NCBI GenBank assembly: GCA_965219995.1
Contig: CBDCOX010000002.1
Location: 64,001-128,000, forward strand
Source of the DNA: Candidatus Latescibacterota bacterium
Lineage (GTDB): Bacteria > Latescibacterota > UBA2968 > GCA-2709665
DNA: 64,000 bases
Reading direction: 5' to 3'
Positions within the stretch are counted from its first letter, which is position 1. The number at the start of each line of letters is the position of its first letter. The notes under the pieces were generated by a model, which ran no database searches, was not told the DNA's origin, and worked only from the letters and a program-made list of their open reading frames with translations. The position numbers were made by a program, and so were the translations under genes. Shown here in pieces: positions 17,427 through 30,765 of the stretch.

Positions 17427-17559
17427 TGTTAATGATCGCCCATATGCGGCCAATGCGGGATCGCCCTAATGGGGCCACCTGGGATGCGATATAGGTTTCG
17501 GACTATCCGGCAACGGTTCTACCTTCTGATTGTCTCCCCGACAGTCAGGAGGGAAGGAC

Positions 17560-19107
17560 ATGGCCAACCGGAGGTTCGAGATGTATCAGATTCGCCAGGT
17601 ATTGACGCGTATGCGGTTGGGCGATTCGGATCGTGCGATCGCCCGTTCAGGGTTGATGGGTCGGCAGAAGGCCGGCGCGCTTCGTGACGTGGCAGGCCGT
17701 GAGGGATGGCTGGACGCTTCCAACGTGTTGCCCGATGATGCCACGCTGGTGCAGGTGGTTCAGGTTCCAACCTCGCGACCTCAGTCGGCCTCGTCGGTTT
17801 TGCCCTACCAGGACAAGGTGACAGCCTGGTGGCGTGAGGGTATCCGGGGTACCGTCATCCACCAGGCGTTGGTGGACACCTACGGCTATGCCGGCTCGTA
17901 TTCTTCCATCCGTCGTTTTCTCCAGCAGCTCAAAGACGCTCATCCCGACGTCACCACCGTGTTGGACTTCGATCCGGGCGACGTGGCGCAGGTGGACTTC
18001 GGGCGGGGTCCCACGATACAGGACGTCTTCACCCACCAGACCATCGCGACGTGGATCTTCGTGATGGTGCTGGCCTGGTCTCGCCACCAGTATGCCGAGA
18101 TCGTGCCGGACCAGAAGGTCGAGACGTGGCTTTCCTGCCACAGAAGCGCCTTCGAGTTCTTCGGCGGAGTCCCGGCACGCGTGGTGATCGACAACCCCAA
18201 AAACGCCATCACCAGGGCCTGCTACCACGATCCGGAGGTGCAGCGCGCCTACGGCGAGTGCGCCGAAGGCTATGGCTTCACCATCTCCCCGTGCCCCGTG
18301 CGAGACCCGAAGAAGAAGGGGCGCGTGGAGGCTGCCGTGAAGTATGTCAAGCGCAGCTTTGTTCCCCTGCGCCAGTTCCGTGACATCAGAGATGCCAACC
18401 GGCAGTTGCAGGACTGGATCCTGGGGGTGGCCGGTAACCGCATTCACGGCACTACCCACGAACGACCCCTGACACGCTTTGCACAGACCGAGCGCGAGTT
18501 CCTCAAGCCGTTACCCGCCATTCCACCTGAGCAGGCGGCCTGGGCCAAGGTGAAGGTTCACGGCGACTGCCACGTCCAGTTCGAGAAGTGTCGATACTCC
18601 GTGCCCTATGCCCTGGTGCGCCAACAGCTCTGGTTGCGGGCCAGCCCAAAAACCGTGAGGATCTACCAGAACCACAACATGGTGGCCGTTCACCTCCGTA
18701 AAAACACACCTGGTGCACGCGCGACCGTTACCGAACATCTGCCGCCAGAGGCGCGCGCTTTCCTGATGCGCGATCCACAATGGTGCCTCAAACAGGCACA
18801 GCGTATCGGTCCTTCCTGCCACCACCTCATCAAGACCCTCTTCTCCGATCGCGTGCTGGACAACCTCCGCGCTGCGCAGGGCATCATCCGACTTTCACAA
18901 CGCTACGGCGCAAGGCGCCTCGAGGCCGCCTGCGACCGCGCCCTGGCCTTTGACAACCCCCGCTACCGGAGTGTCAAAAGCATCCTCGAAAAAGGTCTGG
19001 ACCAATGCAAGCATCCAAATGAGACGTCCACAGCCCCACACACCCTCGCGTCAGCCTATACGGGACAGGGACGTTTTTGTCGCGATGCCACAACCCTCTT
19101 CAGCTAA
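17560..19107 (+). CDS. istA: IS21 transposase IstA
   Basis: PGDVAQVDFG, FFGGVPARVVIDNPK, PKKKGRVEAAVKY, RIHGTT, YSVPY. Confidence 0.95.
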   Translation: MANRRFEMYQIRQVLTRMRLGDSDRAIARSGLMGRQKAGALRDVAGREGWLDASNVLPDDATLVQVVQVPTSRPQSASSVLPYQDKVTAWWREGIRGTVIHQALVDTYGYAGSYSSIRRFLQQLKDAHPDVTTVLDFDPGDVAQVDFGRGPTIQDVFTHQTIATWIFVMVLAWSRHQYAEIVPDQKVETWLSCHRSAFEFFGGVPARVVIDNPKNAITRACYHDPEVQRAYGECAEGYGFTISPCPVRDPKKKGRVEAAVKYVKRSFVPLRQFRDIRDANRQLQDWILGVAGNRIHGTTHERPLTRFAQTEREFLKPLPAIPPEQAAWAKVKVHGDCHVQFEKCRYSVPYALVRQQLWLRASPKTVRIYQNHNMVAVHLRKNTPGARATVTEHLPPEARAFLMRDPQWCLKQAQRIGPSCHHLIKTLFSDRVLDNLRAAQGIIRLSQRYGARRLEAACDRALAFDNPRYRSVKSILEKGLDQCKHPNETSTAPHTLASAYTGQGRFCRDATTLFS

Positions 19108-19127
19108 AAAAACGGGAGAACAACAAC

Positions 19128-19907
19128 ATGAACCCGATGCCCGAACTTGCCCCCATGCTCAAAAGACTGCGCCTGTCCGGCATCCTCGAGACACTGCCTG
19201 CCAGAAATCAGGAAGCCATCGACAACAAACTCGCTTACAGCGAGTTCCTCGCCCTGCTTGTCCAGGACGAGGTCGCACGCAGAGAACACAAAAAGTTCAA
19301 CCTGCGCCTGCGACGCGCGGGCTTCCGCGGCGAGAAAACCCTCGAGGGCTTCGACTTCGCCTTCAACCCCGCCATCAATCAGGCCTTCATCAAGGACCTG
19401 GCCACCTGTGCCTTCATCAAGGAAAAGGTCGCAATACTGATTGCAGGACCCTGCGGCACGGGCAAAAGCCACATCGCACAAGCCCTGGGACACCTCGCCG
19501 TCAGAGCCGGCTACGACACCCTGTTCACCACACAAACCAAGCTGTTGGGACAACTCCACGCCGCACGGGCGACAGGCACCTTCGAGCGGCGCTTCCACAA
19601 TGTTGTCAAAACACCGCTGCTCATCATCGATGACTTCGGCCTCAAACCCATGACGCCGCCACACGACGAGGACTTCCACGACCTCATCTCTGAACGCTAT
19701 GAACGGGCGGCTACCATCGTCACCTCAAACCTCGACTTCTCGGAATGGGTTCACGCCTTCCCGAATCGACTCCTCGGCGCCGCCACCCTCGACCGTCTCA
19801 GGCACGGCGCCTATCGCGTCATCCTCGACGGCGAAAGCTTCCGCGCACCTAAACCCTTACCACAATCACAAAAAAAACACCTTGGAAAGGAGGCCCAAGA
19901 GCACTAA
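19128..19907 (+). CDS. istB: IS21 helper ATPase IstB
   Basis: KTLEGFDF, GPCGTGKSH Walker A, LLIIDDFG, TIVTSN, ATLDRLRH. Confidence 0.95.
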   Translation: MNPMPELAPMLKRLRLSGILETLPARNQEAIDNKLAYSEFLALLVQDEVARREHKKFNLRLRRAGFRGEKTLEGFDFAFNPAINQAFIKDLATCAFIKEKVAILIAGPCGTGKSHIAQALGHLAVRAGYDTLFTTQTKLLGQLHAARATGTFERRFHNVVKTPLLIIDDFGLKPMTPPHDEDFHDLISERYERAATIVTSNLDFSEWVHAFPNRLLGAATLDRLRHGAYRVILDGESFRAPKPLPQSQKKHLGKEAQEH

Positions 19908-20011: not shown

Positions 20012-21277
20012 GTGGCTAAGACAGTAATGATATTCGGGGCAGGTGCAACGTTACCATTTTTCTGTCCACCCATTACAACCAGTAAGTTGACTGATTTGGT
20101 GCAGAATAGGCGGAAATGGAAAGACCTTCTGGATAGGTATAACACAGAAATGTGTCGCGCGAGTTGCCTTTTGGATTGTAAGGTCAAATGGGAGCCCGTA
20201 TCGCACCTAATCCAGCGGGCGTTCGAAGTAAAAGGGTGCGTCAACTTTGAGGAACTCATCGGGTTTTGTGATCTGTATTCATCGTACGTGATTCACGATA
20301 GTTACCTTGCAAACAGTGGAATTGGAATTGAAACAAAACGTCAGCACGATCTCTTGAGGTTCTTCAACGTTAGACAGCCAAATCAAGACTGTCAATACTG
20401 GCAGATGGTACCCTTTTTGTTCAGACAAATCATCGCCGAAGCAATCGAAGAATGGGTTGGTCAATATCGATCAAAAAACTACTGTAGCCTCCTGATCCGG
20501 CAAAAGGAATTGCTTTTGGGGCAACTTAGGCAGGGCGATCTGTCATGCTACTCTTTTAACTATGATGACGTCTTGCTTCAGACGGTTTCGGCTGGAAAGT
20601 TGCCCTTGCAGACGGGCTTCGTTTCCGGACGCTTTTGCGGAGAGAAATTCCTTAAAGCGCCATCTATTCTGGCGTTTTTGCACGGCCATGCCAGCTGGGC
20701 TCTGGACAACTGCGGTATGAGGGAATTTGGATCAATCTCTGATGCCAACCGTTGGCGAATCGGGCGTCTCTTCACCGATGATGCGCCTCCGATGGAATTC
20801 GTCGATGAATCTGGCGCCTACGATTTCAATTCATTTCTAACCACTGGCTTGGATAAGGACCCCTCATTCAACCGCAAACCCTATTGTGCGTACCACCAAA
20901 GACTTGCCTACGACCTTATGTCTGCAGATCGACTCATCGTGGTTGGATACTCGTTCAGGGACCAACACGTTGATAGGTTTCTGCTGAACTTTCTTGATCT
21001 CAAACCGACGACAAATAAAGTCATGGTCATTGACCGGTGGGATTATGATATTGATCAACAATCCGAGTTCACTAATCCGTTCGGATCGCTGCGCCGCGTA
21101 CTGGCCAAATTTGACGGTACGAGCATTCCCTTTACGCAGGGTGGCAACGGGCGAATAAACAACGTCGGCTATGGGCCTTTTTGTGGTTCGATTTGGATTT
21201 ACAAGAAAGGTTACGCCGACTTTCTTGTCGAGTGGGAGACCGTTCTCGATGAATGGCAATCGTCGGATAGTTCGTAG
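20012..21277 (+). CDS. SIR2-like (SIR2_2/AbiH-like) protein, probable NADase defence effector
   Basis: IFGAGAT, SFNYDD, FLHGH and LIVVGYSFRDQHV sirtuin-like motifs; lower GC than the core. Confidence 0.8.
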   Translation: MAKTVMIFGAGATLPFFCPPITTSKLTDLVQNRRKWKDLLDRYNTEMCRASCLLDCKVKWEPVSHLIQRAFEVKGCVNFEELIGFCDLYSSYVIHDSYLANSGIGIETKRQHDLLRFFNVRQPNQDCQYWQMVPFLFRQIIAEAIEEWVGQYRSKNYCSLLIRQKELLLGQLRQGDLSCYSFNYDDVLLQTVSAGKLPLQTGFVSGRFCGEKFLKAPSILAFLHGHASWALDNCGMREFGSISDANRWRIGRLFTDDAPPMEFVDESGAYDFNSFLTTGLDKDPSFNRKPYCAYHQRLAYDLMSADRLIVVGYSFRDQHVDRFLLNFLDLKPTTNKVMVIDRWDYDIDQQSEFTNPFGSLRRVLAKFDGTSIPFTQGGNGRINNVGYGPFCGSIWIYKKGYADFLVEWETVLDEWQSSDSS

Positions 21278-21440: not shown

Positions 21441-21683
21441 TTAATGTTTCGTGTCCTTGGGTGGGTGGGGGTCGTTTCCAGGAGGTACGGTATCCGAATC
21501 ACGCCAACGCCCATCCCGTCCCTGAATGCGAACCTCGCCCCCACCTAAGTTCCCAACAATCTCCTTTGCCCGTTGCTCAGCTTCACGCTGAGTGTCGTGA
21601 ACAGAACTGGCTTTTTCTGAATTCGGCCCCTTGACAGCCCAGCCTTCGGGATGTTTCGTTACATACCGTTCATTCCTGCCCAT
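21441..21683 (-). CDS. DUF2188 family small protein
   Basis: GWAVKGPNSEKASSVHDTQREAEQRAKEI...EVRIQGRDGRWRDSDT...NDPHPPKD; AAGGAGG RBS. Confidence 0.88.
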   Translation of the reverse strand: MGRNERYVTKHPEGWAVKGPNSEKASSVHDTQREAEQRAKEIVGNLGGGEVRIQGRDGRWRDSDTVPPGNDPHPPKDTKH

Positions 21684-22094: not shown

Positions 22095-22484
22095 TCAGCG
22101 GGTCCACAGCTTAGACAACCAAGCCAGAAAGCCCGCCCGTGGCGTATAGTGTGCGCATTTGTTCCTTCTGTCATGCAAGCGCCCTGCCTCAATCTGCCGC
22201 TTCGACCACCGTCGGGCCCATTTCACGGTACAATGCTCAATCCAATAATGTGACATGCACTCGAAGCTCCAGTTGCCGATAGACGGGCTCAGAGAGATAG
22301 AATCTCCATCAAAGGAAAGTGTCCAGTCGGTGGGTGTCAGCGGCGTTACAACCTCGCCCCCGCAACCGCAGCAGCACTTATGCACGGCTGTGGCGTAGTC
22401 GATTGAGACGTAAATCGTCCGTTCTTGAAGATCCTCCGGAATAGTCTTGACGAATATAAATTCGAGGATCATCGACTGCCTCAT
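22095..22484 (-). CDS. DUF6527 family protein (putative Zn-binding hydrolase of a ubiquitin-like operon)
   Basis: HKCCCGCGGEVVTPL, SLSPSIGNWSFECMSHYWI; ATGA overlap with the ThiF gene stop. Confidence 0.85.
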   Translation of the reverse strand: MRQSMILEFIFVKTIPEDLQERTIYVSIDYATAVHKCCCGCGGEVVTPLTPTDWTLSFDGDSISLSPSIGNWSFECMSHYWIEHCTVKWARRWSKRQIEAGRLHDRRNKCAHYTPRAGFLAWLSKLWTR

Positions 22485-23665
22485 ACTTTGTCCTCATTGT
22501 TGATCACATTTCCGTCGAGTGTGTAAGTGCTGAAATGCTCGTGCTCCAAATCGAGGTAGAAACCGGCCAGCTTTTTCCATTTTATCACCGCCAAGGCAGC
22601 ATTAAGCGCGTTCAGTTCGGCTATCTGGATGTTTCGCGAGTATATGCCATCGTCGTCGCCACCAGAGAATCCGATTCTGTTTCGTTCTCTTATATGGTCG
22701 CGCTTCATGGGGGTGCTCGTCGTCACCCGTAGGACGCCCAATAGCTTGTCGTCGGCGAGTTCGATTCCCATACCTACATCAATGAATGGAATATCCAGAT
22801 CTTCAAGTTTTTCGATGATGGGTAGTTTCACGTTGCCCTTATCCACACAAAGAAAAACAAATTCCATGTCTTTCAATAGGCTGACGTTGGACGCGTCGAT
22901 ATGGAAGTCATGCGAAATGATGCCTTTCCGCATCTTGGCATAGCGATTCGAATGATGAGTGACTTTTTTGGGTATCGATCTTAACTCCTCAATGGAGGGT
23001 GCGCCGGGTGCCCGGAATGCGTTGTGTTGTAGGAATTCATCTCCGTCAAAGATATGGATCTCCCGAACCCACGTTTTTGCAACTAAATCAAGAATATAGG
23101 ACCCTGTTCCACCAAGGCCAATGATTGCAACTCTTTGGAGGTGAAGCCTATTCGAAACCGTCGTAATTCCTGCGCGGCTTGAAGCAGTGTCGACGTAGTT
23201 GAATATTGAGTCTGGGTCATCTGATGCGATCACCCGTCGGGTCTGCGCTGTAGCGGTCGAGTCAAGGGCTTCTGCGTGGCCTGCAATGATGGCAACGTAT
23301 GTGACCATCTTGTGGTAATAGTCCTTGTAATCTCCGCTAATTGGCTTACTTGAAAATGAGTGGTCTATCACCAAACCTTCGCAGATTTCCTGCCGGTCGC
23401 TTTGGAGCTTTATTTTTTCGAGTTCGGAACCGTTTCGATCACAAGGATGCTCACCGGCGAACATTGCCACGTGTGTGCTTGGAGTAGCGGTAACGTCGCC
23501 GGCAAGATCAAGGGAGGAGACGAGTACCCCCCGCCGCACCTGCTTTTGAGGGTTCACGTAAGGTACGTTGTACATCAATAGAAAGCCCGACCTGACGTCA
23601 ATCTCATAACCGTCATCCAACAGCCTTTTTAGGTCGGCACTACGATTTATCAGTTGCTGTGACAT
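22481..23665 (-). CDS. Fused E2-like (DUF6791) + ThiF/E1 adenylyltransferase
   Basis: N-terminal VPYVN...HSFSSKP...YYHKMVTY domain; C-terminal VAIIGLGGTGSYILD, DGDEFLQHNAFR and FLCVD ThiF motifs. Confidence 0.88.
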   Translation of the reverse strand: MSQQLINRSADLKRLLDDGYEIDVRSGFLLMYNVPYVNPQKQVRRGVLVSSLDLAGDVTATPSTHVAMFAGEHPCDRNGSELEKIKLQSDRQEICEGLVIDHSFSSKPISGDYKDYYHKMVTYVAIIAGHAEALDSTATAQTRRVIASDDPDSIFNYVDTASSRAGITTVSNRLHLQRVAIIGLGGTGSYILDLVAKTWVREIHIFDGDEFLQHNAFRAPGAPSIEELRSIPKKVTHHSNRYAKMRKGIISHDFHIDASNVSLLKDMEFVFLCVDKGNVKLPIIEKLEDLDIPFIDVGMGIELADDKLLGVLRVTTSTPMKRDHIRERNRIGFSGGDDDGIYSRNIQIAELNALNAALAVIKWKKLAGFYLDLEHEHFSTYTLDGNVINNEDKV

Positions 23666-23948
23666 TGAAGATCATGCCATCTTTGACCCTCACGATTTCG
23701 CCTTCGATAAGGATCCCTTCCGGTTTGTTTCCCACACCGTGTCGATAGGTAATGGTGAATTCGATAAATTTTCCAGTGGGAGGGTCATCGAATGCCAGCG
23801 CGACCAGTTCACGAAATGTCAACTCCGCCCTTATACTGACCTTTTTTTCTCGGCCGTTAACGATTATTGTGGCGTCTTTGGCGGGTCCGGAGTCCGCCTC
23901 CTTGTGTCCGAATTCACCGTTTTCTGCTTTTACGTGTTCAATCTGCAT
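23640..23948 (-). CDS. Multiubiquitin-domain (beta-grasp Ubl) protein
   Basis: IIVNGREKKV..ELTFRELVALAF...FTITY...GEIVRVKDGMIFNVTATDKS; AGGAG RBS before MQIEH. Confidence 0.85.
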   Translation of the reverse strand: MQIEHVKAENGEFGHKEADSGPAKDATIIVNGREKKVSIRAELTFRELVALAFDDPPTGKFIEFTITYRHGVGNKPEGILIEGEIVRVKDGMIFNVTATDKS

Positions 23949-24071
23949 TGCACTAACTCCTTTCTTCCTCAACCCGCAGACAGATGTGGATTTCGGCTGC
24001 GTCTGTCGCTGCCGACCATCTGGCCGTTCCTGCGTGCGAATCTCGAAACAGGTCCAGATTGGAATCTGCAG

Positions 24072-24208
24072 AATATACAAGAAATCAATAAATGTGTCAA
24101 TAACAAAAGGTGAAAACGCCTTTTATCAAACGCTTCTGCTCAAGATTTGGCCTTGGAAAGCCTTCTATGTTTTTATTGCTTGACATTCGTTCCCCGATTG
24201 CCTAAATT
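24072..24208. promoter_or_regulatory. Divergent sigma70 promoter pair between the Ubl operon and the regulators
   Basis: Minus strand: TTGACA(24100-24095)-17-TATATT(24077-24072). Plus strand: TTGACA(24180-24185)-17-TAAATT(24203-24208). Inverted repeat AAAAGG-N8-CCTTTT (24105-24124) between them. Confidence 0.75.
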
Positions 24209-24221
24209 CTGTGCCAGCGAT

Positions 24222-24602
24222 ATGCGACGGCGACCTGAATCAGAACGACTCTACGAGATTGTAGGGCAGAAGGTAGAACGTAGGCGGCGTGAGGCTAAGC
24301 TTACGCAGGCCCAATTGGCCGGGCTATGTGGCCTCGCGCGTGGTTCCATTGCCAACATTGAGAGCGGAAACCAGCGTCCAACCATTCATACGCTATGGGA
24401 TCTCGCGGAGGCGCTTAAGGTCGATATGCGCTCGCTTCTGCCTTCGCCTGAAGAATTCCTGCCGGATGTGGGGGGTACTGCGAGGCCGGTAATCACGGGT
24501 AGGTTACAGAAGGTGGCGGGAGAGAGTCGAAATCAGATTGCTTCCTTCATCGCTAGTAGCCGAGCGGAGGTCATGCCAGATGTCTCTGGAGAGGATGGCT
24601 GA
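24222..24602 (+). CDS. XRE-family HTH transcriptional regulator (CapH/ImmR-like)
   Basis: RRREAKLTQAQLAGLCGLARGSIANIESGNQRPTIHTLWDLAEALKV. Confidence 0.92.
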   Translation: MRRRPESERLYEIVGQKVERRRREAKLTQAQLAGLCGLARGSIANIESGNQRPTIHTLWDLAEALKVDMRSLLPSPEEFLPDVGGTARPVITGRLQKVAGESRNQIASFIASSRAEVMPDVSGEDG

Positions 24603-25083
24603 GGCGCTACTCGCAAATGCAGGCGTGAATTCCGCACCGGTTGACTTGAATCGAGTGGCAGAGCACTTGTGCATAAAGATTCAGTACGTCGACCTCGGTG
24701 AGGATTGTTCGGGCGTGCTCGTCCGTAATGGGGACCGTGCCGTGATTGGTGTCAATGAGGATCACCATTCGAATCGCCAGCGGTTTAGTATCGCGCATGA
24801 GATCGCCCATTTCGTTCTACATAGGGGCGATACGTACATCGACAAGGGGTATCGCGTACAATTTCGCGACCTTGAATCAGGCTCTGGGACAAAACGGGAA
24901 GAGATGGAGGCTAATGCACTTGCTGCGGCATTGCTAATGCCTGCCGCTTGGGTAAGGCGTGCCTTCCTCCTGAAGCCTTTTGATTTGGCTGAAGACGATG
25001 TACTTAAGATGCTTGCTGATAATTTTAACGTGAGCACTCAAGCGATGACCTACCGACTCATGAAACTACGAATGATCAGCTGA
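24580..25083 (+). CDS. ImmA/IrrE-family metallopeptidase (CapP-like)
   Basis: PVDL, RQRFSIAHEIAH (HExxH), EMEANALAAALLMP, FNVSTQAMTYRL; overlaps the HTH gene. Confidence 0.92.
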   Translation: MSLERMAEALLANAGVNSAPVDLNRVAEHLCIKIQYVDLGEDCSGVLVRNGDRAVIGVNEDHHSNRQRFSIAHEIAHFVLHRGDTYIDKGYRVQFRDLESGSGTKREEMEANALAAALLMPAAWVRRAFLLKPFDLAEDDVLKMLADNFNVSTQAMTYRLMKLRMIS

Positions 25084-25172: not shown

Positions 25173-27788
25173 TTAGCACAGGCTTGTTTGAAGGAGACTA
25201 GTCGGTTTTCTTTCCGTCTCCTGCCCATTCTGTCTATCCCCGTCGCCCCACACCCGCCGTATCGCCGCCTGAATCCTCTTCTCCATTCGCTTTATTAACT
25301 TCTTGTTCGCATCCAAGATGGCTTGTTCGCCCTTGATTTCGGTGACGATTTCTTCTTGTGTCTCGGCAGCGGGTAGGGGAATTCTGTAGCTTTCCAGGAC
25401 GGTTTTGGGAACCCGTTGTAGTCCTCCAGTTCCGGTCATCTGTGGTGTTGCCCATTTTCGAAATTTGGGCGTAGCGACGCTGAGGTATATCCATTCAGGG
25501 ATAACTTCCCGTTCCGGTCTCAGCACGTAAAACTCGCTCGAACCAAACCCGATTCCGTTGCTCAAGCCGTTGGCGATTCCCGCTTTGCCATTCTCAAAAC
25601 AGGGAGTCACCTTTGCAATAAGTACGTCGTCGTCCCTGAAGTAAGTATAGCTGGTGCCAACTTCATTTAAGCGCTTACAATGTCTCGGTGAAAAATACAT
25701 ACTGTTTGAGCCCAGATCAGCCATCGGCACAAAAGAAACGAATCTTGTGCCGTCGAATGCATTCAATTCCGATTTTCGAGGATTTAGATTGCAGACTTCC
25801 CCGATTTCCACCATCGGCCAATCGGGGTCGATGGGAATATGCGGTCGGTAGTTGTCGATGACTGCGCGCGCACCGTCGATCACCCGCTGATACCCCTTGA
25901 TCTCCGCCACAATCTCCCGCTGCACATCCAGAGGCGGTAGGGGAAAACTGAAGCTCGAATACTGTCTCGCGTTAATATTGGTAAGCGTGCCTGTCTTCGA
26001 GTTACTGTCTATCCACTCGCGCCACGTCTCTGACTTGGTTACGTGATAAACAAATTCAGGAACGGCTTTAGTCGGATCGATACGGAAACGAATCAAGTAA
26101 CCAGCGTATTGATAATTTCCTTGCTGATTTCCGTGCAGGTAGGTACGTCCAACGGAGCCCGAGCGTGCGATAAGTAGGTCACCAGGTTTCAAGAAGAGGT
26201 CTGGCTCGATTAGTGAAGGCGAAACTGAATCGCTTGAACGGAGTTCTCCGTCGTCTGTAATGTCAGTTATCCGCACATATCGTACTTTGTTATCGAATGT
26301 AACTTTGCGTGCCCCGGAACCGTACGTCGGTTTGCCCAAGATAATTTCGCCAAGGTTTACCCAGGCGTATTTTGTATCGTTGGTTCTGTATTCCCTATAC
26401 CTCTCCCCACTCAGGTTGTACTCCCCACCAGCCGCGATTTTTGACTTTGGGACGATGAGTGGCACCCCTTGCTGAATGAGTTGCTCCAGGATTGACTGAT
26501 CGGCGGCGGGGTGTGGTTCGCCTTTATCCTGCCCATCCTGTCCATCCATGTTCCCAACATTGCCAATGTACTCCTTCATGGCCTCCAAGGTCCGCGGGAG
26601 GTCGTTCAGATCGATCGGTCTGCGCTGGGCGCCGAGGTCGAAGCCGTCATTTTCGACTTTGAAGAAGGCGATCTGATCGGTCCGTTTCGCCAGGGATTTG
26701 TCGAGGATCAGGATTGACGTCTTGACGCCGGAGTAGGGATTGAAGACGCCCGCGGGGAGGGAGACGACGGCGACCAGATAGTCCTCGACCAGCATCTTGC
26801 GCAGTTGTTTGTGGGCGTTTTGGCTCTGGAAGATGATGCCCTCGGGGACGATGATCCCGGCGCGGCCGGATGGCGTAAGATGTTCGGCCATGTAGTCCAC
26901 GAACAGGACTTCGCTGCGTTTGGATTTCACGGAAAAGCGGTTGTGCGGGCGGATGCCGCCCTTCGGCGACATGAACGGCGGATTGGCCAGAATGACGTCG
27001 GCGTATTCGTTCCAGCGGTCCTCGCTGGTGAGGGTGTCGTATTCGACAATGTGCGGTTTCTGAAAGCCGTGCAGGTACATGTTTACCAATGACAGTCGGA
27101 CCATATCCGGTGAGATATCGTAGCCCTTGAAGTTTGCGGTGAGTTTTTCCCGTTCGTCAGGTGTGAGCGTACTGTTTCCGTCGTCGTCGGTATTGGCCTC
27201 GACAATGTGCTTGTACGAGGAAATGAGAAACCCGGCAGTGCCGCAGGCCGGGTCCAGAATGGTTTCGTTTTTCTTCGGGTCGATCACCGCGACGATGAAG
27301 TCGATGATGTGGCGCGGGGTGCGGAACTGACCGGCGTCGCCCTGCGAACCCAGGACCGAGAGCAGGTACTCGAAGGCATCCCCGAGGCGCTCGCTGTGGT
27401 CGTACGTGAACTCGTCGATGACCTTCAAAAAGGCGCGGAGCGTTTCCGGGTCGCGATAGGGGAGGTAGGCGTTGTTGAAGATGTCCCTGAAAAGCGGCGG
27501 TATGCCGGGATTCTCGGGCATTCGGTCAATGGCTTCGGCGTAGACATTGAGCATCTCATGTCCGCCCAGGCCGGAACGCATCAGCTTCGGCCAGCCGAAC
27601 CGGGCAAATTCACCGGCGAAGAATTTCCGCGTGCCGCCCAGCTCCTCGCTCTTGGCGTCCATGTCGTCCATGAACTTGTAGATCAACGCGATCGTGATCT
27701 GCTCGACCTGGCTCTTGGGATCCGGCACCTTCCCGACCAAAATATCGCGGGCGGTATCTATACGGCGTTTCGTTTCAGCGTCTAACAT
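25173..27788 (-). CDS. Type I RM N6-adenine methyltransferase fused to specificity subunit (HsdM-HsdS)
   Basis: GQFRTPRHI, DPACGTAGFL and ANPPF MTase motifs, then two TRDs each followed by PLPPLDVQREIV / PLPAAETQEEIV conserved helices. Confidence 0.92.
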   Translation of the reverse strand: MLDAETKRRIDTARDILVGKVPDPKSQVEQITIALIYKFMDDMDAKSEELGGTRKFFAGEFARFGWPKLMRSGLGGHEMLNVYAEAIDRMPENPGIPPLFRDIFNNAYLPYRDPETLRAFLKVIDEFTYDHSERLGDAFEYLLSVLGSQGDAGQFRTPRHIIDFIVAVIDPKKNETILDPACGTAGFLISSYKHIVEANTDDDGNSTLTPDEREKLTANFKGYDISPDMVRLSLVNMYLHGFQKPHIVEYDTLTSEDRWNEYADVILANPPFMSPKGGIRPHNRFSVKSKRSEVLFVDYMAEHLTPSGRAGIIVPEGIIFQSQNAHKQLRKMLVEDYLVAVVSLPAGVFNPYSGVKTSILILDKSLAKRTDQIAFFKVENDGFDLGAQRRPIDLNDLPRTLEAMKEYIGNVGNMDGQDGQDKGEPHPAADQSILEQLIQQGVPLIVPKSKIAAGGEYNLSGERYREYRTNDTKYAWVNLGEIILGKPTYGSGARKVTFDNKVRYVRITDITDDGELRSSDSVSPSLIEPDLFLKPGDLLIARSGSVGRTYLHGNQQGNYQYAGYLIRFRIDPTKAVPEFVYHVTKSETWREWIDSNSKTGTLTNINARQYSSFSFPLPPLDVQREIVAEIKGYQRVIDGARAVIDNYRPHIPIDPDWPMVEIGEVCNLNPRKSELNAFDGTRFVSFVPMADLGSNSMYFSPRHCKRLNEVGTSYTYFRDDDVLIAKVTPCFENGKAGIANGLSNGIGFGSSEFYVLRPEREVIPEWIYLSVATPKFRKWATPQMTGTGGLQRVPKTVLESYRIPLPAAETQEEIVTEIKGEQAILDANKKLIKRMEKRIQAAIRRVWGDGDRQNGQETERKPTSLLQTSLC

Positions 27789-28063
27789 CGAAGAACCTCA
27801 GACTTACATGGATGGACAGGATGAACAGGATAAATTCAAGAACCCAAAACATCGGATTCAGCCAACGCATCAACGATTCCAGCCGTTGCAGTGGTATATA
27901 TCATCCAGAGCTTGTTGCTGAAAACTGCCTTGTAATTGACGGTTCGAGAATGCAGAACTTCGTTGAGAAAGAGTCTTGTTTCCTTGTGATTTTCAATGTA
28001 TATTTCGTTTGTCTGGACGTTTTATTAGCTCTTGCAAATTGACTAAAATGTCTTATTGCAGGC

Positions 28064-28094
28064 CCCACGGGTTTCGGCTCGTGGGATTTTTTTT
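28064..28094 (+). terminator. Plus-strand intrinsic terminator-like hairpin
   Basis: CCCACGGGT-TTCG-GCTCGTGGG followed by ATTTTTTTT. Confidence 0.6.
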
Positions 28095-28236
28095 GTATTT
28101 GAATGAATCGTAGGAAGAAACGAGTTGAGGTTTATAGCTTATATGCCGGTTTTCGGGGTGGTTTTCCTTTGTGTTTTTGTGCCTTTTGTGGCCATTTTGT
28201 TTTTTTCTTGCCTCTGATCCTGTGCATCCATGTTTC

Positions 28237-30765
28237 CTAAGCAGCAAACTGATTTAGCGGGACGTAGTCCTTGACGTATTCGGGGACGAGTTTGCGGTAT
28301 TTCTCCGGTACGGCGCCAAGGTCCTTCATTGAGAGAACGGGGTTGGTGGCCAGGCCGGTGTAGTCCCGGTTTTCGATGATGTGACGTACCTGGTCGCTGG
28401 TGACGTACGCTTTGAAGTAGTTCTTGATCGCGGGGATGGACTCGACCTGTTCGGGGGTATAGTCGGCCACGAACTTCCCGAATTCCTCTTCCAGCATCTC
28501 ATCTTTGGATTTAAACCGCGGAATCAGCCCAAACACCTTTTCCAGGATCTCCCTGAGCGTGATGCGACGGTCCACGGCTGCGGCCTTGCGCAGCTTTTCG
28601 AGCGTGTAATACTCCTCGGGCCGGTCGAAGACTTCCCGGTTGACGTAGTCGATGACCCGGTCCCACTGCCCCGCCTCCACGGCCTGCGCGATGACGTCAT
28701 CCTTCCGAACAGCATCCTCGAATTTCTCGAAGAACATCCGATCGATCCTCATCCCTTCCGCTCCGACGGCCTCGACCTTGATGGTCGACAGGATGTCCCG
28801 ACCCAGGTACTCGTAGGCACCAGCGTCGGCGACGGGAGTATTCGGATCCTCTTTTTCGATAGCAACCTTGTAGGAAGGCAGTCCCAACACTTCGTCGTAG
28901 TTGAACTCGGTTTCGAAGTATTCGCAGTTGGCGAAGAAGTCGAACAGCTTGAACTCGGTCTTATCCGGCTCGTCTACGCGTTCCGCGATGGCCGGATTCT
29001 GCAACTGTTCGAGGAAGTTATGCTTCCTTGTACCTCGCCCCTTGATCTGGATGAAGTCGGTGGGCGAGAAGATCGGGCGAAAGAGACCGAGATTAAGGAT
29101 GTCGGTACAATCATATCCCGTTGTCATCATGCCGACCGTCACACAAACCCGCGCTTTGCTCGTCAGATACTCAGGGAGGAAGTTCCCGGATCCGAGCAGG
29201 TTATTGTTGCTGAAATTAACGGTGAACCGCTGGGCATCCGAAATCTGCGATGTGACCTGTACGGCGAAGTCCGACTTGTATCTGTCCGGAAACATGACGT
29301 GAGCCATCAGGTTGAGGATTTGAGTCAGTTTTGCAGCGTGTTTTTGACTGACGGCGAAGACGATGGACTTGCCGATTTCGCCGCTGACGGGGTCACGAAG
29401 CGCGTTTTCGAGGAACGTCTTGCAGAAGAGCTGGTTGGTCGCGTCGGAATAGAATCGCTTCTCGAACTCACGCTTTTTGTAAGCCTCTTCCTGTTCTTCA
29501 CCCTCATCGTCCGTAAATGATACGACGAATCCCTGTTCGGAGAGCAACTTTGTTGTCACTTTCGTTCGCGCGTCAACGACCGTCGGGTTGATCAGATAGC
29601 CGTCCTTCACGCCGTCCAGCAGGGAGTATTTGAATGTGGGCTGCCCGCTTTCGCACCCAAATGTACGGTAGGTGTCCAGGAGCAAACGGCGTTCTGCTTC
29701 GCGCGGGTCCCGCGTGGTCGGGCTGGTCCCGTCGAATCCTCTCAGATAGTCCCGGGGAGTTGCGGTCAGGCCCAGTTTGTACCCGACGAAGTAGTCGAAT
29801 ACGGACCGGGCGTTGCCACCGATGGACCGGTGGGCTTCGTCGGAGATGACGAGGTCGAAGTCGGTGGGCGAAAACAGCGATTGGTACTTATTGTTGAACA
29901 GCAGCGACTGGACCGTGGTGACGACGATCTCCGCGGAACGCCAGTCGTCCCGCCGTTCCTTGTAGATCACCGTTTGGAAGTCAGCCGAAAGCAGGGCGGT
30001 GAAGACCTTCCTCGCCTGTTCCTCGAGTTCCAGCCGGTCGACGAGAAACAGCACACGAGAGGCATTGCCGGAGCGCAGAAAGAGCTTGATCACAGCCGCG
30101 GACACCAGGGTCTTGCCGGTTCCGGTGGCCATTTCGAACAGGAACCGGTCTTTCCCGTCCTTCACGATCCTCTGAAGCGTATGAACGGCCCGGAGTTGGT
30201 AGGGGCGGAGGAAATTCAATCCGTTGGACTTGATAAAGGCGGGGCGTTCGGCTTCGTTCGTCCACGCCGCTTCCGAGGCATAATTCGGCCGCTGGGTGAG
30301 TACGATGTAATCCTCACTGACGGACTCATCGACCAGGCGCTGAGGGTTGGGCTGGACTTTATTGTAGTTGGTTACGGAGTCCGGCGTCGGGAAGGAAGTG
30401 ATGACGTACGGATTGCCTCTCTCGAGGTCCCAGAAGTAATGCAGATTTCCGTTCGACAGGATGACGAAGCGGCAGTTCTGCGAGCGGGCGTATTTTCGTG
30501 CCTGTTCTTTGCCCACCAGCGGGTTTTTGTCCTCCGACTTGGCCTCCAGGACGATCAGCGGGAAGCCTTTTTCGTCAAGGAGGAGAAAGTCTACGCGACC
30601 TGTCGCGTTCTCAAAGTCGTCGCCCAGTGCGTCCAGGTCGGCCTTCTTCAGCTTGACGCTCGCCTCGACGCGAATGTTGGCAGGCTTGCCTTCATTGTCG
30701 AAGAACCGCCACCCCGCCGCCTCGAGCAGTTTGTTGATCTTGATCCTCGCCGCTGCTTCGTTCAT
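28237..30765 (-). CDS. hsdR: Type I restriction endonuclease subunit R (EcoAI/EcoEI-like)
   Basis: N-terminal D..LEAK nuclease motif, LRPYQ, MATGTGKT, DEAHRS, GLTATP, TTGYD, QIKGRGTR. Confidence 0.93.
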   Translation of the reverse strand: MNEAAARIKINKLLEAAGWRFFDNEGKPANIRVEASVKLKKADLDALGDDFENATGRVDFLLLDEKGFPLIVLEAKSEDKNPLVGKEQARKYARSQNCRFVILSNGNLHYFWDLERGNPYVITSFPTPDSVTNYNKVQPNPQRLVDESVSEDYIVLTQRPNYASEAAWTNEAERPAFIKSNGLNFLRPYQLRAVHTLQRIVKDGKDRFLFEMATGTGKTLVSAAVIKLFLRSGNASRVLFLVDRLELEEQARKVFTALLSADFQTVIYKERRDDWRSAEIVVTTVQSLLFNNKYQSLFSPTDFDLVISDEAHRSIGGNARSVFDYFVGYKLGLTATPRDYLRGFDGTSPTTRDPREAERRLLLDTYRTFGCESGQPTFKYSLLDGVKDGYLINPTVVDARTKVTTKLLSEQGFVVSFTDDEGEEQEEAYKKREFEKRFYSDATNQLFCKTFLENALRDPVSGEIGKSIVFAVSQKHAAKLTQILNLMAHVMFPDRYKSDFAVQVTSQISDAQRFTVNFSNNNLLGSGNFLPEYLTSKARVCVTVGMMTTGYDCTDILNLGLFRPIFSPTDFIQIKGRGTRKHNFLEQLQNPAIAERVDEPDKTEFKLFDFFANCEYFETEFNYDEVLGLPSYKVAIEKEDPNTPVADAGAYEYLGRDILSTIKVEAVGAEGMRIDRMFFEKFEDAVRKDDVIAQAVEAGQWDRVIDYVNREVFDRPEEYYTLEKLRKAAAVDRRITLREILEKVFGLIPRFKSKDEMLEEEFGKFVADYTPEQVESIPAIKNYFKAYVTSDQVRHIIENRDYTGLATNPVLSMKDLGAVPEKYRKLVPEYVKDYVPLNQFAA

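Follow-up and report, generated by a model that had tools for sequence, protein, structure and literature searches.

Introduction

The bacterial ubiquitination-like (Bub) pathways were defined in two preprints from one laboratory (Ye et al. 10.1101/2024.11.21.623953; Gong et al. 10.1101/2024.11.21.623966). According to Ye et al., a Type II Bub operon (formerly "6E.2") encodes the ubiquitin-like protein (Ubl) BubA, the E2-E1 fusion protein BubBD and the peptidase BubE, usually without a JAB peptidase. In this work, we describe five open reading frames (ORFs) at positions 22095-25083 of a 64,000-nucleotide stretch of DNA from a Candidatus Latescibacterota bacterium (assembly GCA_965219995.1, contig CBDCOX010000002.1, positions 64,001 to 128,000 of the forward strand). 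This whole stretch is called the window below. The locus very probably represents an intact Type II Bub operon that is located in a defence island and controlled by a switch consisting of a repressor and a peptidase.

In the Bub route, the Ubl is passed to a crossover-loop tyrosine of the E1 and then to a serine of the E2, and in Type II systems this serine is accompanied by an invariant lysine and histidine (Ye et al.). The R219A, Y342F and S106A substitutions in E. coli BubBD are reported there to abolish the BubA-BubA conjugates. In the same work, BubE is described as a Ser-His peptidase of weak activity that carries a C4 zinc site. The systems of E. coli and Citrobacter are the only ones for which ATP-dependent oxyester conjugation has been demonstrated (Ye et al.). 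An earlier note on this DNA, made by a model from the letters alone, had given this picture as Tyr/Ser oxyesters, a Ser-His hydrolase and an unsettled function, which agrees with the text of Ye et al.

In the catalogue of Ye et al., 168 of 544 Bub operons (31%) are accompanied by the genes of CapH and CapP. CapP has a length of about 290 aa and consists of a peptidase domain, a helix-turn-helix (HTH)-like linker and a GAF domain (Lau et al. 10.1101/2022.04.27.489752; Calloji et al. 10.64898/2026.05.16.725639). Its groove for single-stranded DNA (ssDNA) lies between the peptidase domain and the GAF domain (Calloji et al.). A cysteine-switch loop is found in 33% of the CapPs of the antiphage signalling system based on cyclic oligonucleotides (CBASS) and is hence not obligatory (Lau et al.). 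Thus, both the Type II Bub architecture and its association with CapH and CapP are already known from the published texts.

Results

Organization of the locus

Three minus-strand genes (bubA, bubBD and bubE) face two plus-strand genes, which encode an HTH protein and an M78 peptidase. The Pfam matches of all five ORFs are far beyond chance. The longest ORF of bubE (22095-22484, minus strand) matched DUF6527 with an E-value of 9.3e-23. The bubBD ORF (22481-23665, minus strand) matched DUF6791 at residues 10-160 (5.7e-57) and ThiF at residues 172-298 (4.6e-10), and the longest ORF of bubA (23640-24080, minus strand) matched Multi_ubiq (1.2e-14). On the plus strand, the longest ORF of the HTH protein (24147-24602) matched HTH_3 (9.3e-14) and that of the peptidase (24538-25083) matched Peptidase_M78 (1.9e-21). 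The overlap is 4 nt between bubE and bubBD and 26 nt between bubBD and bubA. The earlier note had claimed overlapping minus-strand genes for a Ubl, a DUF6791-ThiF fusion and a DUF6527 protein, divergent from an XRE-family HTH protein and an HExxH peptidase. The Pfam matches, the two overlaps and the HEIAH sequence of the peptidase bear this out. The Type II set of BubA, BubBD and BubE is thus present on three overlapping genes. JAB was not matched by Pfam in the operon proteins or in the seven neighbouring proteins scanned. Judging from the sequence, the window matches the published definition of Type II Bub gene for gene, and the operon is a known system and not a new one.

The limits of the ORFs were also given correctly in the note. 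The longest ORFs of bubA, capH and the peptidase gene most likely extend too far upstream, and we corrected the three starts from the DNA. The bubA gene (23640..23948, minus strand) would encode 102 aa from an ATG at 23948 behind AAAGGAG. ATG 23948 is the more likely start, as the TTG at 24080 would be located upstream of the -10 hexamer predicted for this gene. The capH-like gene of an XRE-family HTH repressor (24222..24602, plus strand, 126 aa) would begin with ATG 24222, and the CapH homologue in locus L021 starts at the equivalent position. The gene of the capP-like zinc peptidase of the ImmA/IrrE family (M78) would occupy 24580..25083 of the plus strand and begin with ATG 24580. Its product of 167 aa has the length of the two top homologues (98% and 84% identical).

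Two predicted sigma-70-like promoters are located divergently, back to back, between bubA and capH. The predicted promoter of bubA-bubBD-bubE (24100->24072, minus strand) reads TTGACA-17-TATATT with 11/12 consensus matches, and that of the capH-peptidase pair (24180-24208, plus strand) reads TTGACA-17-TAAATT with 10/12. The near-consensus promoter pair of the earlier note was thereby found again, as letters of the DNA. Between 21900 and 25300 we observed 6 promoter-like sites, compared to 3.2 +/- 1.6 in shuffled sequences. Therefore, the promoter calls are consensus matches and no proof of function. The predicted 5' leader of the bubA operon is about 115 nt long. It is without a known explanation, since the Rfam scan of 12000-33000 returned zero families at the gathering score. 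The ATG of capH is only 13 nt past the -10 hexamer, so the predicted capH mRNA is almost leaderless.

The inverted-repeat search of 24040-24225 revealed an imperfect palindrome, TCCAGATTGGAATCTGCA (24053..24070, no strand assigned), immediately downstream of the bubA -10 hexamer, which we consider a candidate operator. The same search gave a second imperfect palindrome at 24105-24124, adjoining the bubA promoter hexamer. The metagenome scan with the peptidase as the query yielded only 5 loci with 32-44% identity, too few and too distant to assess the conservation of the operator.

BubBD

The bubBD gene (22481..23665, minus strand) encodes 394 aa, of which residues 1 to about 145 form the E2-like part and residues about 160-394 the E1 adenylation part. 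An exhaustive HMMER search with BubBD gave 2023 cluster representatives with E <= 0.001, of which 579 had E <= 1e-30. Of the 150 representatives of 50% clusters that were listed, 137 were aligned with the query (n=138); they are 41-60% identical to it, and identity measured in the alignment is 41-59%. Excluded from it were 13 truncated or over-long rows (P0162, P0174, P0180, P0188, P0211, P0212, P0220, P0234, P0240, P0242, P0244, P0255 and P0263).

In the E2-like part, His65 is kept in 138/138 sequences, Ser105 in 136/138 (the remaining two carry Cys) and Lys107 in 122/138. In the E1 part, the active-site Arg218 and Asp207 are both invariant (138/138), and the nucleotide-binding loop retains Gly183 in 138, Gly185 in 137 and Gly188 in 136 of the 138 sequences. 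The crossover-loop Tyr342 is found in 136/138, and the remaining two sequences carry a tyrosine one column before. The query has exactly three cysteines (75, 95 and 273) and zero CxxC pairs. A cysteine occupies even the most conserved of these columns, Cys75, in just 93/138 sequences, and no other column has more, so there is no conserved cysteine. The motifs and the cysteine content quoted in the earlier note were all found: HSFSSKP at residues 102-108, GIYSRNIQ at residues 340-347 and SPSIGNW...SHYWI in BubE. The note had also named conservation of the Tyr and Ser in homologues as a check, and each is kept in 136 of the 138 sequences.

In two homologues (P0138 and P0156), Cys replaces the E2 serine (LCSKP and LCNMP), and the crossover-loop tyrosine is retained. 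These BubBDs may be natural thioester/oxyester hybrids.

The AlphaFold2 model of full-length BubBD has a predicted local distance difference test (pLDDT) value of 95.8, and the model of the N-domain has 84.5. The weakest part of the full-length model is the crossover loop 330-349 (block pLDDT 74-81), as expected of a mobile loop. When the N-domain was compared with 48,161 PDB chains using VIA-align, the best match was Citrobacter BubB (9eav_D) with Z 9.4, and 121 of 128 residues were superimposed with a root-mean-square deviation of 3.6 A. The next rows were VPS37A, Tsg101 UEV, UBE2E1 and Ubc8 at Z 5.6-6.0, within a run of UEV/E2 proteins at Z 5-6. Thus, in the model the N-terminal domain of BubBD has an E2/UBC-like fold. 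This was the outcome on which the earlier note had staked its interpretation in advance. Foldseek with the full BubBD model gave the Citrobacter BubCD chains as the best matches (E 1.7e-15), followed by PaaA, UBA5, MccB and ThiF.

ThiF, MccB and PaaA also match the E1 half in structure, which raises the question of whether the locus encodes a sulfur carrier of the ThiS/MoaD type, or a peptide modification similar to that by MccB or PaaA, without protein conjugation. Some BubBD homologues are indeed labelled "tRNA A37 threonylcarbamoyladenosine dehydratase" or "ThiF family adenylyltransferase". We find this explanation barely credible. The top structural matches are Bub proteins, with ThiF not among the best, and the E1 is fused to an E2-like domain with conserved Ser, Lys and His. 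Pfam detected no rhodanese domain, there is no conserved cysteine, and the tail of BubA is TDKS and not Gly-Gly. Moreover, the three genes including that of DUF6527 show strict synteny in 25/25 loci, and no thiamine or molybdopterin genes are adjacent among the neighbours scanned.

The Type II CBASS enzyme Cap2 and the Bil system (BilA-D) were also considered and rejected. They resemble the locus in E1/E2-based conjugation in defence islands, and Cap2 is an E2-E1 fusion as well. However, both depend on catalytic cysteines and have a JAB peptidase, and the target of Cap2 is a CD-NTase; none of these are present here. The neighbourhood scans returned no CD-NTase or JAB match, and the PADLOC CBASS E1-E2 models covered only the Rossmann stretch of BubBD (about 150-290) with 4e-7 or weaker. 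Bil was set aside because its catalytic cysteines and JAB peptidase have no counterpart at the locus.

BubA and its predicted docking to BubBD

BubA consists of an N-terminal tail of about 25 aa and a single beta-grasp (Multi_ubiq) domain, and its C-terminus is ...TDKS. The PDB sequence search matched it to beta-grasp domain 3 of the E. coli ZDHYS365 Ubl (9cd2; E 1.4e-8). This alignment runs to the last residue of both proteins, and both tails end with TDKS. The C-terminal serine is invariant in the 26/26 aligned sequences. We compared 30 Type II BubAs, namely the window copy, those of 25 loci, those of two relatives' loci, PDB 9cd2 and E. coli CP61. The last residue was Ser in 30/30 and Gly in 0, usually within T-D/N-K/R-S and mostly as TDKS. 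The main texts of Ye et al. and Gong et al., supplements aside, contain no discussion of this serine. It is possible that the E1, the E2 and BubE may recognise and use such a non-Gly terminus.

The final eight bubA codons share 26 nt (23640-23665) with the first eight-plus codons of bubBD. Since the bubA stop lies 26 nt inside bubBD, the tail of the Ubl and the N-terminus of the ligase are dual-coded. The overlap of 26 nt is kept in all Type II loci examined (the window, L001-L025, L030, L031 and L038). It may couple the stoichiometry of the Ubl and the ligase. Like the serine, the overlap goes without mention in the main texts of the two preprints. Both the invariant C-terminal serine and the conserved overlap bear on how these E1s recognise their Ubl.

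The earlier note had suggested co-folding the Ubl with the fusion protein. We co-folded BubA 24-102 and BubBD 160-394, which is the E1 half, alongside three controls, and the interface score ipSAE was 0.64 compared to 0.00 for the best of the 3 controls. This passes the ipSAE mark of the co-fold benchmark, which was reached by 58/80 solved complexes and 2/110 mismatched pairs. The runs had at least 83% of contacts in common, and the pLDDT of the partners was at least 84. The tail of BubA (97-102) contacts BubBD residues 183, 185-188, 273-275, 297-302 and 345-347, which include the Gly-rich loop 183-188. Thus, the C-terminus of BubA is predicted to enter the E1 adenylation site of BubBD. A Citrobacter BubCD-BubA complex has been solved, so passing the benchmark shows likeness to it and not binding by this copy.

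BubE

The bubE gene (22095..22484, minus strand) encodes 129 aa with a zinc site of Cys37, Cys39, Cys41 and Cys76 and a Ser68-His79 dyad; the C-terminal tail is hydrophobic (GFLAWLSKLW). When BubE was aligned to the homologous proteins of 25 genome loci (n=26), Cys37 was kept in 26/26, and Cys39, Cys41, Cys76, Ser68 and His79 were each kept in 25/26, in agreement with the zinc site and dyad described by Ye et al. All misses at Ser68, Cys76 and His79 come from the frameshifted copy of locus L011. BubE is 55% identical to the annotated E. coli DUF6527 protein. The PDB sequence search with BubE gave zero matches at E <= 10, in agreement with the statement in the text of Ye et al. that no BubE structure exists.

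Comparison with the E. coli and Citrobacter systems

The closest described relative is the Type II Bub of E. coli ZDHYS365, which shares with the locus the three genes, their order, the absence of JAB, the catalytic residues of BubBD and BubE and the TDKS tail. They differ in BubA, which has one domain in 102 aa here. In E. coli ZDHYS365 it is composed of three domains and assembles into filaments in a Ca2+-dependent manner (Gong et al.). Single-domain Ubls make up 40% of the catalogued Bub Ubls, so that a one-domain BubA is inside the known range. The operon of E. coli CP61_Sichuan is also similar, with BubBD 50% and BubE 55% identical and the same 26-nt overlap of bubA and bubBD.

Both halves of BubBD find their best match in structure in the Type I Citrobacter Bub, which is likewise a cysteine-free system using Tyr and Ser and has a DUF6527 peptidase. 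However, Type I consists of Ubl-E2 and JAB-E1 fusions instead of the E2-E1 fusion found here. JAB cleavage exposes a C-terminal Gly in Type I, whereas the Ubl here already has its C-terminal Ser free when it is made. The E2 serine is assisted by His and Asp in Type I and by Lys and His here. Sequence similarity of Type I to BubBD is weak (E 0.008) and confined to the E1 half.

The regulator pair

PADLOC identified the peptidase as capP (6.6e-37) and the HTH protein as capH (2.4e-9), and the capP match spans only profile positions 4-153 of 242. The zinc motif HEIAH of the peptidase and the downstream Glu of EMEAN align with Thauera CapP and IrrE. Between HEIAH and the third zinc ligand there are 33 residues without a cysteine. 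The peptidase was aligned to residues 89-177 of the 291-aa Thauera CapP (7t5t), which are part of the peptidase domain and linker, and it stops after the linker. The next gene is only 90 nt away from its stop. The best 120 homologues listed all have a length of 144-186 aa at 63-98% identity, although proteins of up to 293 aa were eligible. The uniformly short homologues indicate that the 167-aa peptidase is a conserved subfamily and not a truncation. In the source records, its close homologues are named "ImmA/IrrE family metallo-endopeptidase". Thus, by its sequence the peptidase is an ImmA/IrrE-family enzyme of the CapP type that lacks the GAF domain of CapP.

As in E. coli MS115-1 and Thauera sp. 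K11, the HTH gene is followed by the gene of an HExxH M78 peptidase, and the pair is located upstream of the controlled operon and divergent from it, an arrangement described by Lau et al. The CapPs of those strains are about 290 aa long and carry a GAF domain; the 167-aa peptidase here has no Cys in the switch loop. In the ImmR/ImmA pair of ICEBs1 and the DdrO/IrrE pair of Deinococcus, an M78 metallopeptidase likewise cleaves a repressor upon DNA damage (Lau et al.). Their cargo is element excision or DNA repair genes, in contrast to the Ubl conjugation operon here, and IrrE has a GAF domain, unlike the peptidase of this locus. ImmA is about as short as the 167-aa peptidase. By analogy with these pairs, the repressor-cleavage logic probably holds for the HTH protein and the peptidase here. 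By the same analogy, we infer that ssDNA could be the trigger and that DNA damage could induce the bub operon.

The same short regulator pair accompanies the Bub operon in L021. In L033 (1081-5507), the gene of an HTH protein and that of a short GAF-less peptidase (43% identical) are paired and divergent from a CBASS-like operon, which comprises a 394-aa protein without a Pfam match, a Prok-E2_A/ThiF/JAB fusion and a patatin. This pairing shows that the short regulator class is common to different cargo types.

The regulator pair could also read a signal other than ssDNA, for example a RecA-dependent or a phage- or element-encoded factor, and bub would then be induced by a different cue. We hold this to be possible but doubtful. 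The ssDNA site of CapP lies between the peptidase and GAF domains (Calloji et al.), and the peptidase here aligns solely to the peptidase and linker of Thauera CapP, has a post-HEIAH loop without Cys and belongs to a conserved short subfamily, to judge from the best 120 matches listed. On the other hand, PADLOC capP is still the best match for the peptidase, and the short pair in L033 is found at a CBASS-like operon, the setting where CapH/CapP were defined. The cysteine switch is absent from most CBASS CapPs, and the peptidase domain alone could still bind ssDNA. The GAF-less subfamily without the cysteine switch may sense something other than ssDNA in a groove between the peptidase and GAF domains.

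Distribution and integrity

The word-indexed search with BubBD gave at least 8000 homologues at E <= 0.001. The best non-self match is 76% identical, and the best 120 matches listed are 62-78% identical. The order bubA-bubBD-bubE is identical in 25/25 genome loci, which span at least nine phyla (Bacteroidota, Acidobacteriota, Planctomycetota, Actinomycetota, Verrucomicrobiota, Elusimicrobia, Proteobacteria, Campylobacterota and Firmicutes), and the annotated E. coli CP61_Sichuan chromosome has all three genes. Of 40 relatives belonging to the genus, family or order of the host, only 3 had BubBD matches at E <= 1e-10, the best of them 37% identical. The GC content of the Bub operon stretch is 0.48-0.56 and that of the flanks 0.60-0.66. 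The rarity among the relatives and the low GC fit horizontal acquisition.

Some of the relatives are damaged or rearranged. In the Bacteroidota loci L024 (2675-3863) and L025 (6001-7189), the E2 and E1 halves of BubBD are in different frames as separate ORFs, the first of 155-160 aa and the second containing the remainder. This may be either a natural split or a shared frameshift. In L011 (6001-11770), bubE is about 4 kb from bubBD and frameshifted, and the operon looks as if it was broken by an insertion.

With an IS21 element 2 kb from the Bub operon and relatives such as these, with bubE displaced or bubBD split, the window copy might also be a decaying, non-functional remnant on a mobile island. 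This seems very improbable to us. The five frames are open and full length compared to the homologues, all catalytic and zinc residues are retained, and both predicted promoters are near consensus.

Surroundings of the operon

Outward from bubE there are the genes of a DUF2188 protein and a SIR2-like protein, and then IS21. The gene of the DUF2188 protein (21441-21683, minus strand; PADLOC PDC-S16 1.2e-22) is 411 nt downstream of bubE and has its own promoter-like site. In L018 and L003, homologues of this DUF2188 protein (61% and 37% identical, respectively) are encoded immediately upstream of bubA, a hint that DUF2188 genes are recurrently associated with Bub loci. The SIR2-like protein of 421 aa (20012-21277, plus strand) was detected by its C-terminal stretch (PADLOC Aga_SIR2 2e-9; Pfam SIR2_2 below the cut-off), and it may be a stand-alone defence gene. 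The IS21 istA/istB genes (17530-19907, plus strand) are located within the low-GC island but have their own GC of about 0.60, and istA contains rve and Mu-transposase C domains. On the other side, a Type I restriction-modification system (25173-30765, minus strand) and the peptidase gene are convergent, and their stops are 90 nt apart. It consists of a fused methylase-specificity protein of 871 aa (25173-27788, minus strand) and an HsdR-like enzyme of 842 aa (28237-30765, minus strand). The low-GC stretch, IS21, the SIR2-like gene, DUF2188/PDC-S16 and the restriction-modification system support the defence island that the earlier note had proposed.

The enzymes may be as described and yet belong to a general stress-response or mobile-element maintenance module, which attaches BubA to host or element proteins after DNA damage. 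We regard this as a possible but rather unlikely alternative. Phage protection has been demonstrated for no Bub operon, and the authors raise a role in a global stress response. In addition, the Bub locus is in a low-GC island adjoining IS21. The defence-type neighbours and the related short regulator pair adjoining the CBASS-like operon in L033 speak for a defence role, though neither is decisive with respect to a stress module.

The genome contains a second, far more diverged Bub-like operon (G000:C2:4170775-4172610; L028 7775-9610). It encodes a Ubl of 97 aa with a weak Multi_ubiq match and a C-terminal Ala, a ThiF protein of 378 aa that is 24% identical to BubBD, and, as the third gene, a DUF6527 protein of 131 aa. 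No DUF6791 match was found in the N-terminal half of the 378-aa protein. Directly after this operon are an EcoRI-like adenine methylase and a GmrSD/HNH enzyme. The relative G014 has a ThiF protein similar to the 378-aa one.

Discussion

By analogy with the E. coli and Citrobacter work, the locus would operate as follows. The HTH protein would repress the bubA promoter until a stress signal causes the peptidase to cleave this repressor. The E1 half of dimeric BubBD would adenylate the carboxylate of BubA Ser102, with the participation of the Gly-rich loop 183-188 and Arg218. BubA would then be moved as an oxyester to Tyr342 on the flexible crossover loop. From there it would pass to Ser105 of the E2-like domain, aided by Lys107 and His65, as a second oxyester. 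According to the predictions of Ye et al., the recipient Ser105 would be on the opposite protomer of the dimer. Finally, BubA would be transferred to a target lysine, and BubE, as a zinc-stabilised Ser68-His79 peptidase, would take BubA off its targets. What the analysis shows is the gene content, the catalytic residues with their conservation, the folds and a predicted docking of the Ubl to the E1. The enzymatic steps, conjugation among them, are carried over from the two systems studied, and the target, the signal for induction and the role in the cell, including any against phage, are likewise inferred.

Several points weigh against the reading of the locus as an intact, inducible Type II Bub operon with a defence role. 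BubA has a C-terminal Ser rather than Gly, the residue shown to be adenylated in Type I. The 167-aa peptidase lacks the GAF domain and the cysteine-switch Cys, so activation by ssDNA as in CapP is not assured. In Foldseek, the N-domain of BubBD had no PDB match at E <= 0.001; the best was Atg3 (E 0.089), and BubB took rank 23 with prob 0.54. The structural comparison proposed in the earlier note therefore succeeded with BubCD for the full model and failed to give a significant Foldseek match of the N-domain to BubB, so the call of an E2-like fold rests on VIA-align. BubBD and its E. coli CP61_Sichuan homologue (50% identical) have different indels, and the offsets to the numbering of Ye et al. 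disagree. Phage protection by Bub had not been demonstrated according to the Discussion of Ye et al. and, as of June 2026, according to the same laboratory in EMBO J 2026 PMC13373217. Despite these points, we consider it very probable that the locus is an intact Type II Bub operon controlled by a switch of repressor and peptidase. That the C-terminal serine with the overlap and the GAF-less peptidase subfamily are real mechanistic departures of the Type II clade appears unlikely to us.

The locus alone adds little, as it joins a family of which hundreds of members have been catalogued and thousands are detectable, as a further intact Type II Bub. Its value is that of a compact and clean test case with a single-domain Ubl, a full catalytic set, near-consensus promoters and a minimal switch with a 167-aa peptidase. 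The same genome also carries the second, much more diverged Bub-like operon. It is the questions that concern the whole family that motivate its study: which proteins BubA targets, whether the pathway serves phage defence or a stress response, and how the reactivity of the oxyesters is maintained.

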